From: Holophagales bacterium
GTDB lineage: Bacteria > Acidobacteriota > Thermoanaerobaculia > Multivoradales > UBA5704
Reading direction: 5' to 3'
DNA length: 64,000 bases
Assembly (NCBI GenBank): GCA_031404815.1
Contig: JANNIH010000013.1
Coordinates: 45,196 to 109,195, forward strand
The position numbers and the translations under genes were made by a program. The notes beneath the pieces were generated by a model. The model worked only from the letters and a program-made list of their open reading frames with translations. It did no database searches and was not told where the DNA came from. Position 1 is the first letter of the stretch. Each line of letters begins with the position of its first letter. Positions 5,130 to 20,440 of this stretch are shown here, piece by piece.

Positions 5130-6846
5130 TCTGCGGCAAGCCGTAGATGCGCAACAGGCCGCCGTTGCGGCCGTAGACCAGCGCGCCCGCCACGACATAG
5201 TCGCCCCACACCGCCGGCCCCATGCAGTAGCCGTAACCGCCGTTGTCGCCGCCGGTCTCCTCGCCGAGCTGGTCCTGCCAGAGCGGAGTACCGTCGGCGA
5301 CCGAAAACGCGTAGACCGTGATCATGGTGGTCGCCATGAACACCACGTCGTTGACCACCGCCGGAACGCTCAAGCCCGATTCGGTGGCGTTGGTGTACAT
5401 CGGCGGTCGGGCCTTCTGGTAGCGCTGCGGATCGTTGTCATCCAACGGCCAGGCGTCCGACAGATCGTCCCAGGAGAGGGCGCGCATGAACGGCGTCGTC
5501 TCGGTATCGATACCCGGTGCCAGCGGGTGATAATTGTTGCCGCCGAGGCCGACGAAGAGCCGCCCTGTCCCCGGATGAATCGCCGCGGTGCTGTAGGTCC
5601 CCGAGTAGTTTTCGCCCTTGTTCGCGTTCGCGTTCGACACCTCGTTCGGCACGCGGGGATTCATCACATTGTTGTTGGTCTCGTCTGCGGTGCCGTGCGG
5701 ATCGACGGTCGCGATCTGCCCGCCGTCGTTGTAGAACGGCAGCATCTGGCGCAGGGCGAGCGGCACGAGCGTCTGCGCGTCGAGCACCATGTACGAGCCG
5801 TTCTTGCAGCCAACCCCAACCCGCCGATGGCCCTGGGCGTCGGTCCACAGGGTGGGCGCGCCCCCCACGTCGACGTCGATGTCGGTCACCCGATAGCTGC
5901 TCTGCGGCGGGAACTGCACGAAGTTGATGAACGTTCCGGTGTCTGCGGCGAGCACGAGGAGGCCGTTCGAGGTCCCCAAGCTGGGCAGCTCGGAGTCCGG
6001 ACTCGGATTGCCCGTCGAGCAGTAGAGCCGCTTCAGTGTCTCGTCGTAAGCGATACCGGCCCACACCGAGCAGCCCTTGGTCACCGGCGGGCCGTCGAAC
6101 ACGGTGAAGCCGGCCGGCGGCGGACTACTCAGCGTTTCGGCCGGGAGCTGGTTCGGCTGGTTCGCCTGGTTCGCCTGGAACTGGCAGGTGCAGAAAATCC
6201 ACACCACGTCGCCGCTCGCCGCGTCGAGGCAGTAGACGAAGCTGTAGAGGAACGGGTTTTCCCCCTCGCCGAACCCGACGTAGAGCTTGCCATTGACGAC
6301 GACCGGCGACGACCAGCCGGCGGCCGGCGCCAGCCCCTGCTCGGCGCCCAGGTCGTTGGTCACCGGCTGGTTGTGCAGGGCATCCGCATAGCGCAGGTCG
6401 GTGACCCACAGCAGCTTCAGAGTGGCCTGATCGAGGCAGTAGATTTTGCCGTTGAAGGCGCTCCAGTAGACCCGCCCGCCGGTGACGCACGGCGTGCAGC
6501 CCATGCCGCAGAAGCCGTGCGTGTCGCGCTCCTCGGCCGGGATGTCCCAATGGAAGACCGCGGTGATCGCGCCGGTCTTGAGCTCGACTTTATAGAAGGA
6601 GCCGCCGTTGCTACCCACCGCCTCGTGGCTGTTGGCCGTCCCTACGTAGACGAAGCCGGCCACCACCGCCGGGGTCGACAGGATCGGGCCGTCCAGCTCG
6701 ACGTCCCAGAGCGTCGCGAGCGTGCCCACGTTGGCGCTGGTGATCGAGCTGCCGGTGACCAGCCCGCTGTGGGCCGGATCGCCGTGGAACATCCACCAGT
6801 CGGAGACCGGGGCGGGCGGTGAGGCCGTGGAGGAAGCTTGCGCCAT
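5125..6846 (-). CDS. PQQ-like beta-propeller repeat protein (573 aa).
   Basis: Repeated W/G-rich propeller blades (WMFHGDPAHSG, GRVYWSAFNGKIYCLD, GKLYVGFG...). ATG at 6846 preceded by RBS GAGGAG. Confidence 0.7.
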   Translation of the reverse strand: MAQASSTASPPAPVSDWWMFHGDPAHSGLVTGSSITSANVGTLATLWDVELDGPILSTPAVVAGFVYVGTANSHEAVGSNGGSFYKVELKTGAITAVFHWDIPAEERDTHGFCGMGCTPCVTGGRVYWSAFNGKIYCLDQATLKLLWVTDLRYADALHNQPVTNDLGAEQGLAPAAGWSSPVVVNGKLYVGFGEGENPFLYSFVYCLDAASGDVVWIFCTCQFQANQANQPNQLPAETLSSPPPAGFTVFDGPPVTKGCSVWAGIAYDETLKRLYCSTGNPSPDSELPSLGTSNGLLVLAADTGTFINFVQFPPQSSYRVTDIDVDVGGAPTLWTDAQGHRRVGVGCKNGSYMVLDAQTLVPLALRQMLPFYNDGGQIATVDPHGTADETNNNVMNPRVPNEVSNANANKGENYSGTYSTAAIHPGTGRLFVGLGGNNYHPLAPGIDTETTPFMRALSWDDLSDAWPLDDNDPQRYQKARPPMYTNATESGLSVPAVVNDVVFMATTMITVYAFSVADGTPLWQDQLGEETGGDNGGYGYCMGPAVWGDYVVAGALVYGRNGGLLRIYGLPQS

Positions 6847-13194: not shown

Positions 13195-15559
13195 ATGAGA
13201 AACACGAAGCTGTTAACTCTCGCCTGTCTGGCCGTCCTGGCGACCATGAATGCCGCCTCCGTCGCCGGGCAACCGACGGAATCGACCGCTCCACTGCGGC
13301 TTTACACCCTCGACAGCAACCCCCTCGAAAGGGCCGCGGAGGGGTCGAGAACCGACGAGCTCGTTCCGGACGCCGCCGAGGAGTTCGCCATCGACCTCGA
13401 CCCGCAGGCCGTCGCCGACAATCCGCCCTCATTCCTCCTCGATCTTCCCGACGGGCGCACCTTGAAGGCCGTCCGCACCCGCTTCGTCGAGTATCGGGAG
13501 GATTGGAAGAGCTGGGTCGGCTTCGCGCGCGAAGTCGGCAACAAGAAGTCCAAGGCCGGTTTCATCCATCTCGGATATCACGGCGAGCAGCTCACCGCGG
13601 TGATTGATTTAGCGGGCGAACGGTACCGGATCGTCGGCGGCTTCGAGGACAGCCATCGCCTGGTCCGGCTCTCCGATGAGAAGGGACCGCTGTCCTGCGC
13701 GTTCGACGACGCGCAGGGTCTTGGTAAGGCGATGCTCGCAGCCGAAAGCGCCGCCGAGACCGAGGCACCGACCGAGACCGAGGCCGCCGCGCTCACCGCC
13801 AACCGCGTCGATGTCCTCGCCGTCTACCCCAAGGCCTTCTTCAGCACGGGCGCCGCGGAAGAGTCGGGGCTCTTCACCTTCATTCAGGATTCGATCTCGC
13901 TGGCCAACACGGTGTTCGCGAACAGCCAGGTCGACACGAGCTACAACCTGGTCGGCATCGTGCCGATCAAAGGCGTCGCTCAGCCGTCGGGTGGTATCTT
14001 CAACGCCCTGACGTGGTTGAATGGCCTGCCCTCGGAGGTCACGACCCTGCGCAACGCCTTCGGCGCCGACGTGGTGACCATCTACGTCCCGTTTTCCTGG
14101 AATGCCAACAACTACTGCGGCGTCGCCAATCTGCCCCAGAACAACAACACGTTCCTCGCGCCCAGTGGCACGGTGAATGCGCCGATGGGTGACAAGGCGT
14201 TCACCGCCAACCGGAACGCCTGCGGCCAAGGCGATTTCACGCTGGGCCACGAGATCGGCCACAACTACGGCATGTACCACGGTGACCAAGCGGCATCCTC
14301 GCTGGCGATATACCCGTACGCCCGGGGCAAACTCATCACGGTGGGCGGGGTGACCAAGGCTACCGTCATGCACTGCGTCTGCCCGACGGGGGGTTGCTTC
14401 GTCGGGAGCGGCTCCACCTGCAACCGGATCCCCCACTTCTCCGATCCGAACATCTTCTACCTGGGAGTTGCGACAGGCATGGCCGACCGCAACAACGCCC
14501 TGGCGGCCCGGAATGCGACTCCGATCTACGCCGGCTTCAAGCCACAGAGCACGAACACTCCCCCCAACGCCAACTTCACCACCTCCTGCTCCGGCGGCAC
14601 CTGCACCTTCAACGCCGGCTCCTCGACCGACAACACCGCGCTCCCGTCGAACGGCTACTGGTGGGACTTCGGCGACGGCACTACGGGCACGGGCGTGAGC
14701 ACGAGCCACTTCTATCAGACCGCCGGCTCCTACCGGGTCCACCTGGTGGTGACCGACGGCAACGGGACGACCGGCCAGACCGATGTCGCGTGGGGCTCCG
14801 TCAACCCGTCGCCGCTCTATGAGGGCTACCACGACATCGCGAATTGCCGCGACATCTCCGGCTGGGCCTGGGACCAGGGAAGCCCCAACACTGCGGTCAA
14901 CGTCGACATCCATCGGGACGGCACCAAGGTCTCGACCGTGCTGGCGGGGCCTCTTCCGCCAGGATCTCCTGAACGCCGGCAAGGGGAACGGCTATCACGG
15001 CTTCGGCTACTTCCCGAACAGCACGTGGAAGGACGGCCAGTGGCACACGGCCACCATCAAGTACACCGGATCGGGCGCAAACCTGAGCACGACCCCCAGG
15101 AGCGTGATCTGTGCCGTGAGCTGCTTGCCCGGCCTGACGCCCACGGAGAACCTCGACACGGCGGGCATCGTCTACACCGTCGCGACGCAGTTCAGCTCAA
15201 CCCATTCCGGATTCCTCACACACCTTCGCTTCTACAGGGCGCCCGGAGAGACCGGTACCAACGTCGGCACGCTCTGGTCCAATAGCGGCACCCAGCTCGC
15301 GCAAGCGACCTTCCCCAGCAGCCCGACCTCGGGCTGGGTCGAGGTCACAATCTCGCCTGTGGCCATCACGGCGGGAACCCTCTACCGCGTCGGAGTCAAC
15401 ACCAACGTCCGGCAATCCAAGACCGGGTGCGGCATCGGCTCGGGCATCACGAACCAGGTCCTGACCGCCCACTCGGGATACTGGATCGCCGGCAACGGCG
15501 TCTTCCCGACCACTGGAAGTTGCAGCAACTTCTTCGTGGACGTGAAGTTCGATCTTTAA
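13195..15559 (+). CDS. Secreted M12B/reprolysin-like zinc metallopeptidase with PKD and C-terminal DUF4082-like domains. A +1 frameshift sits near 14945 (G-run), so this is either a sequencing error or a pseudogene.
   Basis: Signal peptide. HEIGHNYGMYHGD is a metzincin HExxHxxGxxH motif. PKD segment GYWWDFGDGTTGTGVSTSHFYQTAGSYRVHLVVTDGNGTTG. The frame then switches (STVLAG | GLFRQDLLNAGKGNGYHG...) and continues into a DUF4082-like segment (LRFYRAPGETGTNVGTLWSNSGTQLA...GWVEV). RBS AAGGAGAA. Confidence 0.6.
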
Positions 15560-15609: not shown

Positions 15610-15783
15610 ATGGAGAAGAAGCAAGCGCAGAAGATATCCACCCTCACCCTGCGGACCGAAACCCTCCGCCGGCTCGACGATGCGCATCTGCCGGGAGTGG
15701 CCGGAGGAGGGAGGCTCCGCGTCCCCATCGGCTTCGCGAACGACACCACCCCGCTTTACGACGACGACACGACCGGCGGTTGA
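15610..15783 (+). CDS. GG-leader peptide, a putative RiPP/bacteriocin-type precursor (57 aa).
   Basis: MEKKQAQKISTLTLRTETLRRLDDAHLPGVAGGG + RLRVPIGFANDTTPLYDDDTTGG. The leader fits the K-rich LxLxxETLRxLxx...VxGG pattern of double-glycine natural-product precursors. RBS AAAGGAG. Confidence 0.4.
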   Translation: MEKKQAQKISTLTLRTETLRRLDDAHLPGVAGGGRLRVPIGFANDTTPLYDDDTTGG

Positions 15784-15946: not shown

Positions 15947-15975
15947 GGGTGTGAGGCCGGCCGGTCCTCACACCC
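15947..15975. terminator. Perfect 10-bp-stem hairpin (GGGTGTGAGG-CCGGCCGGT-CCTCACACCC) between convergent genes.
   Basis: Perfect inverted repeat read directly. It is 3' to both 15610-15783 (+) and 16002-16388 (-). No U-tract, so if it terminates it is intrinsic-like but atypical. Confidence 0.35.
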
Positions 15976-16001: not shown

Positions 16002-16388
16002 TTACCCGATCTCGACCGCCGGATCGGCCGGGCGCACCGTCTTCGCGGCTTGATCAGCTCGGCGGTTCCGGGGGCGGATCGGCGAGACTCGGAACTGCAC
16101 CAGGCGCTCGCTCTTCGTGCCGAGAATGGACTTGGTCACACCGCGCAGGCGACGCGCCATCTCGCGACCTTGAGTGATCATCTCCCGCAGATCCTGGGTG
16201 GCTTCCTGCCGCCTGGCCGTGCAGGAGTCCTGCCGTGCCTTCTGCGCCCGAACCCGCGCCAGGGCCGCCACCAGCGCCTCCCGCTGCGGCTGCGCCCCGG
16301 CCTGGACGCCCTCATTGTCGTTGGTCGCTTCGAGCAGCAGCTCCCAATCTCGAACGATGTCGGAAAAAGAACTGGGAATGGTCGCCAT
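16002..16388 (-). CDS. Hypothetical protein (128 aa from MATIPSSFSDIVRDW...).
   Basis: RBS GAGGAAGG precedes the internal ATG. No family recognised. Confidence 0.4.
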   Translation of the reverse strand: MATIPSSFSDIVRDWELLLEATNDNEGVQAGAQPQREALVAALARVRAQKARQDSCTARRQEATQDLREMITQGREMARRLRGVTKSILGTKSERLVQFRVSPIRPRNRRADQAAKTVRPADPAVEIG

Positions 16389-16594
16389 GATTCGCCATCC
16401 TTCCTCAATCGCGGCCGAACGCGGCGAGAGTGCCGCGCGGCCACGCCCCACGGGGCGCGAGAACGGTTCTACCAATCCAATTCCGGGAAATCTAGCTTTT
16501 CGGCCTCCAGAGCGAAAATAGTTCCCGGTCCCCGCGAAAACGAGCGATCGGCAGCGAGATCTGAAGGGTAGAGACCGATTTTTACGCCATCCGA

Positions 16595-17330
16595 AGCCAG
16601 CTCGCGACGGCTCCCAGCCAGCTCGCGACAGCTCCCATCTGGCTCGCAACGGTCGCCAGCCGGAGCGGAGCCGCCCAAGGTCTCTTTGAGCGTCTCGGAG
16701 CCGGTTCGCGACGTTCGCGAGCGAGATCGGAGAGACCGCGAGCGGGTTGCGAGCCTCTCCGATCGAGATGGGAGAGGCTCCGAGCTGGAGCGCAGCCTCC
16801 CCCAGCCGGCTCGGAGCCTTCCAAGGTAGGTTGGAGCCTCAGCGAGCCGGCTCGCGACCATCGCGAGCCGGCTCTCTGACCCCCAGATCTGGCTGCGAGC
16901 CGCTCCCATCCGGCTCGCGGAGTGTCCGAGCCCGCTCGGAACCGCTCAATAGGGGGGTGGGCGGCTGCGAGCCCGCTCGCGAAGGCTCAGAACCCGCTGC
17001 GAACCGCTCACAACCCGCTCGCAGTCGCTGCGAGCCGGCTCGGGGTCTCCCCCATCCGGATGGGAGAGGCTCAGAACCGGATGGGAACCGCTCAAATCGA
17101 GGTTGGGAGGTTGCGAGCGAGTTCGCGATGGCTCGCAGCCCGCTGGCAATCGCTCCGAGCGAGATGCAGACCGCGCCGAGCCCGCTCGGAATCGCTTCGA
17201 GCAAAGTGCCGACCGCGCCGAGTTGGATGCGACAGGCTTTAGTTGAGCCGCCGACGACCGCGAGCCGGCTTCGAGCCCTTGCGAGACTGAAGTCGCCGAG
17301 TGGGAACCGCGCTGCGAGGGGGCGACCCTC
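16595..17330. repeat. Degenerate tandem array of about 35 units of 21 bp (core CGCGAGCCGGCTCGCG, which is palindromic). Phase is strictly conserved with no indels.
   Basis: Manual segmentation shows every unit is exactly 21 nt and carries ...CCGGCTCGCGA...CGCTC... variants. The region is stop-free in several frames and yields only low-complexity heptad translations. No start codon with an RBS. Confidence 0.6.
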
Positions 17331-17359
17331 CTGACCCTCGATCTCGCCCTGGCCGCCAG

Positions 17360-17445
17360 CCACCCGACCGAGAATTGAAGATCGCGCGCAGGCGCGTGAA
17401 GGAGTTGCAAGATGGTTGATCTGAAGCACAACCCGATCCGGCAAA
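17360..17445 (+). repeat. Duplicated fragment of the higB 3' end and higA 5' end. About 95% identical to 18747-18822, with an orphan 12-codon higA start (MVDLKHNPIRQTT*).
   Basis: GAGAATTGAAGATCGCGCGCAGGCGCGTGAAGGAG..CAAGATGG.TGATCTGAAGCACA.CCCGATCCGGCA is shared, with 4 mismatches in about 75 nt. Confidence 0.6.
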
Positions 17446-17482
17446 CCACTTAAGTTAGGCCCCCCCCCCTGTGCAAGCTTCT

Positions 17483-18115
17483 TCAGCAGCAGCAGCACGG
17501 ACGCGCGGCCATTCCCCAGTGCGTGAGCTTGTTCTTGCCGATCACGGTCGCCTTTCCCGTCGCGACGTTGATGTCCACGAGCTCACCATTCGCGGTCGTC
17601 CCGTACAAACGGCAACCGAAGAAAGCCAAGCCGTAGACCGTGCTCAGCCCGGTGGAACCGATCAGGGTCGCCTGGTTCGTGGTGAGATTGATCTGCGCCA
17701 GGGACACCGAGCCTCCCGAATTCAACGCCCCAAAGAGAACGTCGTTCGAGTCGAAAGCCAGGTCGCCGCTGGAGGAAAGCCCGGGACCGTAGTTTCCTGG
17801 CACCGGCATTCCAGCTCCTGTGACCGGATTGAGCTTGACCAACTGAGTGGCGCCTGCGGCGTAGATCGTGCCGTCGGAGTGCACGGCCAGTCCGTTGGTC
17901 GTCGAACCCGTCGCGCCGACGACGGTCCCCTTTCCGGTATCGGGGTTGAGCTTCAAGAGTTGAGAGAAGCTCACCCCATACAAGGTCGGGCCATGAAACG
18001 CGATGTCCGTAACGTTGGCGATCGTCACCGGCCCGACGGCGTTCGGCGAAGCGGTCGCGGGATCGATGGTGTAGAGGGTGCTGGTCGGATCTACGACGTA
18101 GAGGCATTTGGACAT
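17483..18115 (-). CDS. Secreted beta-propeller (NHL-like) repeat protein ending in CCCC (210 aa).
   Basis: Repeated xGxLYxV/DG blades. RBS GGGGAGAA. The stop codon is followed directly by a G10/C10 homopolymer at 17460-17469. Confidence 0.5.
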   Translation of the reverse strand: MSKCLYVVDPTSTLYTIDPATASPNAVGPVTIANVTDIAFHGPTLYGVSFSQLLKLNPDTGKGTVVGATGSTTNGLAVHSDGTIYAAGATQLVKLNPVTGAGMPVPGNYGPGLSSSGDLAFDSNDVLFGALNSGGSVSLAQINLTTNQATLIGSTGLSTVYGLAFFGCRLYGTTANGELVDINVATGKATVIGKNKLTHWGMAARPCCCC

Positions 18116-18545: not shown

Positions 18546-18800
18546 GTGGCGTTTGAGATCGAGTACTTCCACGAGCGGATTCTCGCAGAGATTGAGGCGT
18601 GGCCTGTAGACGTTTTGGCGGACTACGCACGGCTCCTGGAGTTGCTGGCAGCCTACGGTCCCAGCCTGCGCCTGCCTCACTCGCGCGCTATGGGCAACGG
18701 CCTATTCGAGCTGCGGCCACGCGGTCGATCCGGTATCGGCCGAGCGAGAATTGAAGATCGCGCGCAGGCGCGTGAAGGAGCTCCAAGATGGCTGATCTGA
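18546..18800 (+). pseudogene. higB: HigB/Gp49-like (DUF891) RelE-superfamily toxin with an in-frame internal deletion of about 25 aa. It is missing the core between ...GIGRA and the C-terminal IE.RA.AR tail.
   Basis: The N-terminus FEIEYFHERILAEIE...LADYARLLELLAAYGPSLRLPHSRAMGNGLFELRPRGRSGIGRA is typical of this toxin family. The expected LY..VVLHAF.KK.QKTP segment is absent (84 aa versus about 105-110). GTG start. Confidence 0.5.
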
Positions 18801-19099
18801 AGCACAGCCCGATCCGGCACGATCATGAAGCCTTCTTGGCGAAAGCAAGACTTCGCAAAGGTTTCAGCGAAGCCTATGAAGCTCTCGATCTCGAGTACCA
18901 GGTCGTCGGCCAGCTGCTCAAGGCACGCGAACGCGCAGGACTGACTCAAGACGCGGTCGCCGAGCGGATGGGCACCACAAAGAGCGCGATCTCGCGTCTG
19001 GAATCTGCCGGGAAGCATGCGCCGTCTCTCTCGACGCTCCGGCGTTATGCCCAAGCCGTAGGCTGCGACATTCAGGTCAAGCTGGTACCGCAGAAGTGA
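18788..19099 (+). CDS. higA: HigA-type HTH (XRE) antitoxin.
   Basis: HTH segment LTQDAVAERMGTTKSAISRLES. Overlaps the higB stop. RBS GAAGGAG. Confidence 0.75.
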   Translation: MADLKHSPIRHDHEAFLAKARLRKGFSEAYEALDLEYQVVGQLLKARERAGLTQDAVAERMGTTKSAISRLESAGKHAPSLSTLRRYAQAVGCDIQVKLVPQK

Positions 19100-19866: not shown

Positions 19867-20188
19867 CTTGCTATTGTAGCCCCAGAGGCCTCATCTCGAC
19901 GCCCGCGAACGCCTTAGCCAAAGCCGGCCACTTCGAGTGCCGAGCTTGTGCTTAAGCGGGTCGAGGTTCACGAGAGCGAACAGGAGCGGCACCTGGTCCA
20001 CCCGGGCGAGGAACTCACCGCGCCGGGGATCCTGCGCAATCCCGTGCCCGTAAATGCGCTCTTCGACCGCGGCTTCGGCTGACGAGATCTTCTCCGACTA
20101 GTGAGCGTCGCCCCCGGGGCGGCAGGCCTTTCGCCTTCCCGAGCCCAGAAGGCACCCGCCCGACGCCGAATACTCCGAAACTTTCTCC

Positions 20189-20440
20189 GTCGGGCACGAG
20201 ACATTTAGCGTCGGGCCGAAGAGAATCGACGTCGGGGTCGAGGGAATCTACGCCGGGTAGATAAGAACCCACGTCGGGTAGATAAGAACCCACGCCGGGT
20301 AGATGAGAATCGCAGCCGGGGTCGTGCCCATCGTCGTTGGGGTCGAGGTATTCTTCGATGAGCGCACAAGAATCTCCAGAGGGCGCACGATAATCTGCGC
20401 CGGGTTCGGGCGAATCGGCGGTTCGGGCGAAAGAATCGAC
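20189..20440. repeat. Second 21-bp-periodic degenerate tandem array (12 units; consensus GYCGGG-N6-7-AGAATC-NAC).
   Basis: Consecutive 21-nt units are gtcgggccgaagagaatcgac, gtcggggtcgagggaatctac, gccgggtagataagaacccac, gtcgggtagataagaacccac, gccgggtagatgagaatcgca, and so on. Lies 3' of the E2 gene. Confidence 0.55.

Follow-up and report, generated by a model that had tools for sequence, protein, structure and literature searches.

The window analysed here, a stretch of 64,000 nucleotides (nt) from contig JANNIH010000013.1 of a Holophagales bacterium, contains about 0.7 kilobases (kb) of degenerate tandem repeats with a period of 21 base pairs (bp), and the question that this locus raises is whether such an array is a broken gene, a folded RNA or a set of sites on DNA. 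The array is bounded by two minus-strand genes, one encoding a DUF4394-like protein of 210 amino acids (aa) (17483-18115) and the other a protein of 128 aa (16002-16388), in agreement with the intergenic position assigned to it in an earlier annotation made from the letters of the window (the sequence-only reading). Our analysis indicates that the array most likely acts as double-stranded DNA, neither gene nor folded RNA. From its sequence features, we favour, with a probability of about 0.45, a phased array of dyad sites on duplex DNA that would be cooperatively bound by protein, probably by the product of the module to which the array belongs. The sequence-only reading had overlooked the partner gene of this module, a 10.4-bp sub-period and the phase slips of the array.

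The 21-bp period proposed by the sequence-only reading is real, since an unbiased autocorrelation scan gives an identity of 0.49 at lag 21 (z = 13 versus shuffles) and a z of 11 at lag 42, and the signal runs across approximately 16597-17306. Wrap-around alignment to a cyclic 21-column profile, with which a parse in gene orientation agrees, resolves 34 units with a mean length of 20.9 bp. The identity between units, described before as low, is measured at about 50%, and for this reason Tandem Repeats Finder recovers only fragments of the array. The array had also been described as being in perfect phase and free of indels, which proved incorrect: four of the 34 units are 20 bp long, are kept in orthologs and cause the autocorrelation peaks past lag 42 to shift to 62/63, 83/84, 104, 125 and 146. 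The array and its short units are located as follows (no strand is assigned to any of them).

16597-17306: repeat array of 34 degenerate units, 30 of 21 bp and four of 20 bp, from the cyclic-profile parse
16681-16700: first 20-bp unit, which with a neighbouring unit holds the landmark CAAAGAGACCTTGG (gene strand) and is ungapped in orthologs
16806-16825: second 20-bp unit, with the landmark CTACCTTGGA, invariant in the five sequences of alignment A2
16931-16950: third 20-bp unit, with the gene-strand landmark CCCCCCTATTGAGCGG
17098-17117: fourth 20-bp unit, with the gene-strand landmark CCTCGATTTGAGCGG
17307-17330: degenerate distal tail of the array, from alignments A2 and A6 and segment identities

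Column statistics place the conserved core of the unit in a dyad, AGCnnGCT, that recurs in weaker form after half a unit, with dyad axes every 10.5 bp along the array. The top spectral line of the window array, at 10.43 bp, exceeds the line near 21 bp, and the top line falls at 10.39-10.49 bp in 12 of 14 arrays that show a half-period line with a power of about 4 or more; this period equals the helical repeat of B-DNA. The window consensus is dyad-symmetric (z = 4.4, reached by none of 1000 column permutations), and symmetry at roughly the 1% level is seen in the consensuses of 10 out of the 18 types of array. The earlier statement that most units carry halves of the 16-mer palindrome CGCGAGCCGGCTCGCG is overstated, as this sequence is found four times at two or fewer mismatches and the core is the shorter AGCnnGCT. 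Outside the array, copies of the array or of its core occur in the 64-kb window at chance level.

Both in the window array and in several other branches (L009-L011, L013, L052 and L053), the 20-bp units stand 125 or 146 bp apart, i.e., they recur every six or seven units, which brings the mean half-period to 10.4 bp. Such recurrence may mean that the units are tuned to the helical repeat of DNA or that the deletions were inherited. Helical-register tuning is an attractive explanation, but ancestry and a deletion bias could account for the same pattern, and young homogeneous arrays are exactly 21 bp in period. Nucleosome-like wrapping with a higher-order spacing of 125/146 bp was considered as well and dropped, the spacing being that of the 20-bp units.

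An independent metagenome-assembled genome (MAG), L003, carries the same array at 98.7% identity; the array is therefore no assembly artefact, and its phase slips are no sequencing errors. Arrays from different genomic contexts align unit by unit to the window array at 79%, 73% and 71% identity; for the left flank, which is not homologous, the figure is 36-42%. Orthologs keep the four 20-bp units as well as the landmarks CTACCTTGGA, GACCTTGG and TTTGAGCGG, and among eight orthologs every array indel measures 21, 42 or 63 bp. Columns A7, C9 and T14 of the AGCnnGCT core have the highest information in the array and are conserved between orthologs at 0.80-0.87, versus about 0.60-0.70 elsewhere. 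One relative, L095, appears to lack most of its array, which could stem from either a real deletion or assembly collapse. Short-read contigs end at the edges of the window array (16549 and 17375), and contigs L014, L015, L018, L020, L051 and L054 begin inside or just upstream of their arrays; such elements are therefore probably under-represented in MAGs.

The array appears to form a self-contained module with a promoter-like site and leader, the gene of the basic, putatively coiled-coil 128-aa protein, and a terminator. The remaining parts of this module, all on the minus strand, are listed here in the order in which they follow the array.

16521-16541, minus strand: weak terminator-like hairpin with TATTTTC, between the array and the promoter-like site
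16466-16494, minus strand: promoter-like element TAGATT-17 nt-TAGAAC, conserved in the close subfamily (alignment A4)
16413-16458, minus strand: conserved 5' leader (about 75 nt), predicted to form the hairpins GCGCCCC-GUG-GGGGCGU and GGCCGCGCGGC-ACUCUC-GCCGCGUUCGGCC
16398-16404, minus strand: ribosome-binding site GGAAGGA of the 128-aa protein gene, from the sequence
16002-16388, minus strand: gene of the 128-aa protein, the partner of the array, an open reading frame (ORF) with an exact match in public assemblies
15947-15975, minus strand: conserved terminator-like hairpin GGGTGTGAGG...CCTCACACCC located 3' of the 128-aa protein gene (alignment A3)

Homology between modules in different contexts starts at about 17290 and stops about 90 nt beyond the stop codon, past the hairpin at 15947-15975; synteny with the 98%-identical genome L003 breaks at about 15914. 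The promoter-like element, which follows the pattern TCGATT-N17-TAnAAn in the close subfamily, may be the promoter of the 128-aa protein gene, and a strict sigma-70 scan reports no promoter at 16466-16494. If this assignment is right, the array lies outside the messenger RNA (mRNA). The terminator-like site at 16521-16541 is weak, with one such site found versus 1.2 expected by chance, and its ACTAT(T/C)TTC is kept in close relatives. The leader at 16413-16458 retains about 90% identity even where the proteins of the relatives share only 73%; Rfam contains no match to it, and it may act as a regulatory RNA in cis or as an operator. The window contains no further genes of the 128-aa protein family, and exact matches to its proteins assign it to a soil metagenome or MAG.

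Relatives of the 128-aa protein at 95%, 83% and 73% identity reside in differing neighbourhoods, each with a gap of 700-1000 bp upstream of the gene, and each of these gaps (L003, L004 and L007) holds a 21-bp periodic array of 700-900 bp. L003 has the same synteny as the window, the L004 module adjoins a SNIPE/T5orf172 nuclease and a CHAT protein, and the L007 module adjoins plsX-fabD-rpmF and a UPF0175/DUF3368 pair. Upstream gaps of 600-1000 bp are found in four more close relatives. Family-alignment scans of one genome per species and of Joint Genome Institute (JGI) metagenomes yielded 83 further family loci. Arrays were scored with a strict threshold, which required a lag-21 identity of more than 0.5 within 126 bp. 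Upstream arrays were called in 13 of 14 loci at 58% protein identity or more, in 10 of 21 at 48-57%, in 5 of 26 at 38-47% and in 0 of 13 below. The same call gave 2 of 67 downstream of the gene and 3 of 45 far upstream, and lags of 20 and 22 gave 2 and 0, respectively. This strict threshold undercounts, as L017 fails to reach it although degenerate CCGGAAG/CTTCCGG motifs fill its intergenic region of 600 bp. An exhaustive profile search retrieved a distant member, L092, which also has an upstream array, of 16 units.

Several genomes carry more than one copy of the module, and four contigs of the MAG SMAG_U4328 carry one each. In other branches of the family, the arrays share the 21-bp period with quite different, often palindromic units: CCGAAGAtaTCTTCGG in L013, L050 and L053, GGACCTGGGTC in L012 and L052, CGCGACCnnGGTCG in L033 and L038, and GGGGnG-N4-CnCCCC in L092. 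Three unit types are found within a single genome (L009, L012 and L013 of SMAG_U4328), and some arrays, e.g., L015, have direct rather than inverted half-units. Such branch-specific units are consistent with the pattern of a protein and its site changing specificity together.

The 128-aa protein is basic (isoelectric point (pI) of 10.9) with an Arg-rich tail, and its family has a median pI of 9.9 and a net charge of +6. An AlphaFold2 model built from 117 sequences, with a predicted local distance difference test (pLDDT) score of 89, has a helix at residues 8-24, a single 60-residue helix at 30-89 and a short helix at 94-99 that holds the most conserved motif, GxxxERLVQF, followed by the disordered Arg-rich tail; no beta strand is present. 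In this model the protein fits a coiled-coil oligomer that binds nucleic acid. Searches with Pfam, NCBIfam, PADLOC and a PDB sequence profile returned nothing meaningful, and a Foldseek search with the model found no PDB neighbour. The family comprises 1041 representatives at E <= 0.001 among 50%-identity clusters, nearly all of 110-160 aa, and the sampled members are all annotated as hypothetical, without a Pfam domain. In sources that give names, relatives are hypothetical proteins of Thermoanaerobaculia, and the titled genome records of the family loci are all from Thermoanaerobaculia, Holophagales or unclassified Acidobacteriota. No match to the 128-aa protein was found by tblastn against plasmids and phages or in a scan of viral contigs.

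Between the window and L003, whose surroundings are 97-99% identical, the array differs at 1.3% of positions and the spacer and leader at none. The coding sequence (CDS) of the 128-aa protein (16002-16388, versus 6001-6387 of L003) has 4.4% base differences and six amino-acid changes, mostly in the C-terminal tail, and its faster change may reflect relaxed or diversifying selection on the protein. In L023, a distant paralog of the family (5177-5580, minus strand), with the motifs QQASLTAAKQEVSKRL and GNRSEKLAEF, is convergent to a family gene, and a 21-bp array of the CTGACCnnGGTCAG type lies 3' of both genes, which means that arrays are not always upstream.

From these features we infer that a protein acting as a dimer or oligomer, for which the product of the module itself is the most probable candidate, would bind one face of the array cooperatively. 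The array consists of some 68 weak copies of the 8-bp dyad AGCnnGCT placed one helical turn (about 10.4 bp) apart, so that all copies lie on the same side of the duplex, and the alternation of strong and weak dyads gives the 21-bp unit. An extended nucleoprotein filament of this kind would abut the promoter of its own gene and would autoregulate the 128-aa protein gene; it could also mark the chromosome, like the operator- or centromere-like arrays of plasmid partition systems. The module is present in several diverged copies per genome in Acidobacteriota of the Thermoanaerobaculia/Holophagales type. An array of binding sites for a dimeric protein, as put forward in the sequence-only reading, is thus favoured, though indirectly, by the sequence features, and the attached term "centromere/iteron-like" stays an analogy because no partition or replication protein is found nearby.

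Several observations weigh against protein binding by the module's own product. Divergence of the array is near that of fourfold-degenerate sites (71-79% identity versus 69-73% in the adjacent CDS), and per-position selection on the array is therefore weak. The same genomes contain, close by, 21-bp arrays whose units are unrelated and which lack this gene, so the 21-bp period may reflect a lineage-wide process rather than this protein. Many family members below 48% identity have no array detectable under the strict threshold, and some arrays, e.g., L015, L040 and L057, are not dyad-symmetric. As to the protein, it contains no helix-turn-helix (HTH), ribbon-helix-helix (RHH) or other recognised DNA-binding fold, and the most invariant family residues are the same across branches with different units and hence cannot alone explain a change of specificity. 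The unit types themselves count as consistent evidence and no more, because co-inheritance alone predicts that units follow clades.

Among the alternatives, the array could be a heptad-repeat protein-coding sequence, intact elsewhere and frameshifted here, or decayed, as the sequence-only reading had suggested. Its period is a multiple of three and, as noted in that reading, long stop-free frames exist on both strands, with frames of up to 207-228 codons in the arrays; such frames are frequent because a GC-rich repeat unit happens to be without stops in a given frame. GC content by codon position, however, is flat in the array (0.71/0.70/0.67 versus 0.65/0.47/0.82 in neighbouring genes), and the same is true of 17 related arrays, 18 in total (e.g., 0.70/0.70/0.66, with about 0.7/0.45/0.85 in adjacent CDSs). 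The four units shortened by one base, kept in orthologs, disrupt every frame, the independent assembly gives the same sequence again, the units are dyad-symmetric, and translations of ORFs in the six frames of the array have no match in Pfam. An intact, annotated heptad gene at homologous loci, which the sequence-only reading had named as a refuting result, was not seen either: no array-spanning ORF is called in the assemblies for which gene calls are shown. The coding reading is rejected and stands near refuted. A structured RNA, i.e., a long non-coding RNA or a 5' leader of about 34 hairpins that serves as a CsrB-like sponge or as a ToxI-like type III antitoxin acting on the downstream protein, appears improbable, although either strand of the array folds more favourably than shuffled sequence (z = -6.8 and -5.4), the order of array, weak terminator-like hairpin and gene is that of type III toxin-antitoxin (TA) loci, and TA genes surround the locus. 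Such folding is trivial, as any dyad-symmetric repeat would show it, and the two strands fold equally well. Across 386 local near-palindromes in 27 arrays, G-T mismatches number 113 and A-C mismatches 132, and wobble pairs make up 35% of non-Watson-Crick pairs versus 33% expected at random; neither G-U excess nor strand asymmetry is present. Unit-by-unit compensation between arms is absent within arrays (z = -0.1 in the window, and mostly |z| < 2 in 23 arrays), and because column composition fully explains arm complementarity, palindromy is a property of the consensus that is not restored in each unit. Covariation is likewise absent among eight orthologs: for the six top-ranked window hairpins, 79.2% of cells are paired versus 78.7% after shuffling, and several of the pairs are broken in six of the eight sequences. 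Rfam 15 gives no match in the window at the gathering score and, in a permissive search, only chance-level matches (E >= 0.48) in 16300-17600. Moreover, the array precedes the conserved promoter-like element, its units share 50% identity versus the near-identical units of known repeat antitoxins, the L023 array lies 3' of a distant paralog, and an RNA function gives no reason to expect that the mean period should match the helical repeat of DNA. A single long specific hairpin was also considered and dropped, since the inverted-repeat pairs have differing centres, as any periodic dyad repeat gives.

The main rival to a protein-bound array is a near-neutral satellite, in which a replication or recombination bias generates 21-bp arrays and the present one hitch-hikes beside a small gene. 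The lineage does have a general preference for 21-bp arrays, with 51 lag-21 periodic regions in 587 kb versus 1-5 for other lags (18-30); several of the lag-21 regions have unrelated units and lie away from any family gene. Array divergence close to that of synonymous sites, the variation in array length, including the loss of most of the array in L095, and the direction of the phase slips, all four of which lost a base as expected under a deletion bias, point the same way. We nevertheless regard a satellite as unlikely, because the position of the array persists down to about 40% protein identity through complete replacement of the units, the core columns are better conserved than the others, indels comprise only whole units, dyad symmetry recurs in independent unit types, and in the closest pair the array has changed less than the adjacent CDS (1.3% versus 4.4%). 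The array might instead be a generic structural element, such as curved, supercoiling-sensitive or cruciform-prone DNA or a loading track for a general nucleoid-associated protein whose gene lies elsewhere, that forms an insulator or topological barrier between transcription units. The 10.4-bp periodicity, the intergenic location of the arrays, the similar arrays with other units next to unrelated genes and the lack of a DNA-binding fold in the adjacent protein would all suit such an element. A generic binder, however, explains neither the branch-specific units nor the tight linkage to one protein family; A-tracts of the classical-curvature type are absent from the array, whose GC content is 67-70% (67% for the 16-17 kb region); and the lack of arm-to-arm compensation speaks against selection for cruciforms, so we hold this explanation to be quite unlikely.

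How the module relates to known repeat systems depends on both the array and the protein. Phased repeat arrays that precede or overlap the promoter from which their own binder is expressed are an established design; in parC/ParR, cooperative binding of a small protein along the array coats and wraps the DNA and represses the promoter of the protein's own operon (PMC5016525). The parC of R1 has ten 11-bp iterons flanking the promoter and that of pSK41 has contiguous tandem repeats; the present locus resembles these type II partition systems in its tandem repeats with a period of about one to two helical turns and in its order, an array about 100 bp before the promoter-like element and a small basic protein gene behind it. 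It differs in that no gene for a ParM-like (actin-like), ParA or tubulin-like/TubZ protein or for any other NTPase occurs among the Pfam-annotated neighbours in the five contexts examined, in that the N-terminal RHH fold of ParR is absent from the 128-aa protein, which is all-helical with no Pfam or NCBIfam match and no PDB neighbour, and in that the array is about 7-fold longer, with about 68 half-sites. The module is moreover chromosomal and multi-copy, with no match in plasmid, phage and viral collections. Type I (ParABS) partition was rejected, as the protein has no ParB domain and the neighbour lists of the five contexts contain no ParA. In sopC and other type Ia sites, short inverted repeats lie within longer tandem iterons at one locus beside the partition genes (PMC5016525), and here too a dyad core lies inside each less conserved unit. 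The present array has 34 units of 21 bp at about 50% identity and no SopA/SopB (ParA/ParB) homologs; the sopC of plasmid F has 12 nearly identical units of 43 bp. The omega protein of pSM19035 acts at parS1-3, where 7-10 short iterons overlap promoters and are bound by the small dimer in direct and inverted orientations; omega forms a protein helix around DNA, and iteron number tunes affinity (PMC5016525). The present family likewise mixes dyad-type and direct-type units, but the period is 10.4/21 bp versus 7 bp, and neither the RHH fold of omega nor its ParA-type ATPase delta is found.

Plasmid iterons are direct repeats about two helical turns apart beside the gene of the Rep protein that binds them and autoregulates. 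At the present locus, no Rep or winged-helix domain, no DnaA box near the array (the sole TTWTNCACA match in the window is at 881) and no AT-rich unwinding element (67% GC) are seen, and the array has 34 units versus 3-9 and a chromosomal core setting, e.g., beside plsX-fabD-rpmF in L007. As in type III TA loci, tandem repeats precede a terminator-like hairpin and a small protein gene, and the locus lies among TA genes. Repeats of the toxI type are few, near-identical and 34-40 nt long, and act as folded RNA. The units studied here are about 50% identical, without wobble bias or RNA covariation, and the protein is elongated and helical, with no ToxN/AbiQ-like fold and no PADLOC or Pfam match. 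Clustered regularly interspaced short palindromic repeats (CRISPR) were rejected because the array consists of contiguous diverged 21-mers without constant repeats and unique spacers; every unit is a diverged copy of one 21-mer. The sequence-only reading was right to see here neither a CRISPR array nor a slippage microsatellite. Repetitive extragenic palindromic (REP) sequences and bacterial interspersed mosaic elements (BIMEs) are described as GC-rich imperfect intergenic palindromes that may cluster (PMC3733652). The present array is likewise made of GC-rich imperfect palindromes in intergenic DNA; each module, however, has a single array in strict phase, and an HUH transposase is absent. 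REPs are dispersed at high copy, bear GTAG/CGTC tags and have an associated RAYT transposase. Membership in plasmid partition thus fails on every protein criterion, and an iteron replicon, a type III TA locus, CRISPR and REP/BIME elements fail on their defining tests.

As far as searched, the module has not been described, and literature searches on such arrays in Acidobacteria gave nothing. A protein-coated track of about 68 half-sites would be far larger than the plasmid centromeres and operator arrays that it resembles. Its partner family, with more than 1000 sequence clusters, is unannotated and has no known fold relative, and the module is chromosomal, in several diverged copies, in an abundant but poorly studied soil lineage. 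If a phased array of dyad sites bound by the module's own product is the right explanation, it would offer a testable entry into how Acidobacteriota organise or mark their chromosomes of 8-9 Mb and would show an array and its binder changing specificity together. A bolder and rather unlikely extension is that such modules form, in Acidobacteriota, a new, self-sufficient class of chromosomal nucleoprotein structure, in which a small coiled-coil protein lacking a classical DNA-binding fold would polymerise on one face of up to 0.9 kb of DNA with one weak dyad per turn and paralog-specific unit codes, without a partition nucleoside triphosphatase. Each chromosome would then have several addressable landmarks that do not cross-react, for pairing, anchoring, condensation or segregation; the 20-bp units may hold the sites in a register of 10.4 bp per turn over the whole array; and other 21-bp arrays would be further members with other binders.

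Other 21-bp arrays were observed in the window and in related loci. A second array in the window, at 20150-20440 (2072-2442 of L003), lies 3 kb from the main array, to which it is unrelated, between a BrnT/BrnA-like TA pair and the 3' end of an E2 acyltransferase gene; it has about 13 units with the consensus ACGCCGGGTAGATAAGAACCC and no dyad symmetry. Further arrays adjoin unrelated genes in L004 (2490-2846), L025 (389-660), L036 (1-252) and L023 (4793-5107), and their units are quite different, mostly contain dyads and are highly homogeneous, e.g., GACCAGAACAGTGGTGATCTG repeated 17 times.

The TA neighbourhood and the duplicated TA fragment reported before were both confirmed: the fragment at 17361-17443, a duplicated TA junction, matches 18740-18819 at 93-94% identity. 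It is followed by a run of ten C residues (17461-17470) and a (GCA)4 tract (the whole spanning 17361-17498), and this tract gives the DUF4394-like protein a C-terminal Cys-Cys-Cys-Cys. On the other side of the module, comparison with a short-read contig that otherwise matches it exactly reveals one additional C (14946) and one substituted base (14941) in the window, and these changes split the gene of a 787-aa M12B-like metallopeptidase/PKD/DUF4082 protein into ORFs at 13195-15285 and 14783-15559; the disruption is probably due to misassembly or to a frameshift in the strain. A 57-aa ORF (15610-15783, plus strand) immediately follows the metallopeptidase gene; it is a called gene in a public assembly, reads MEKKQAQKISTLTLRTETLRRLDDAHLPGVAGGG... 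and ends in a glycine run. Judging by its sequence, this ORF has the look of a leader peptide and may encode a precursor of the type of ribosomally synthesized and post-translationally modified peptides (RiPPs).

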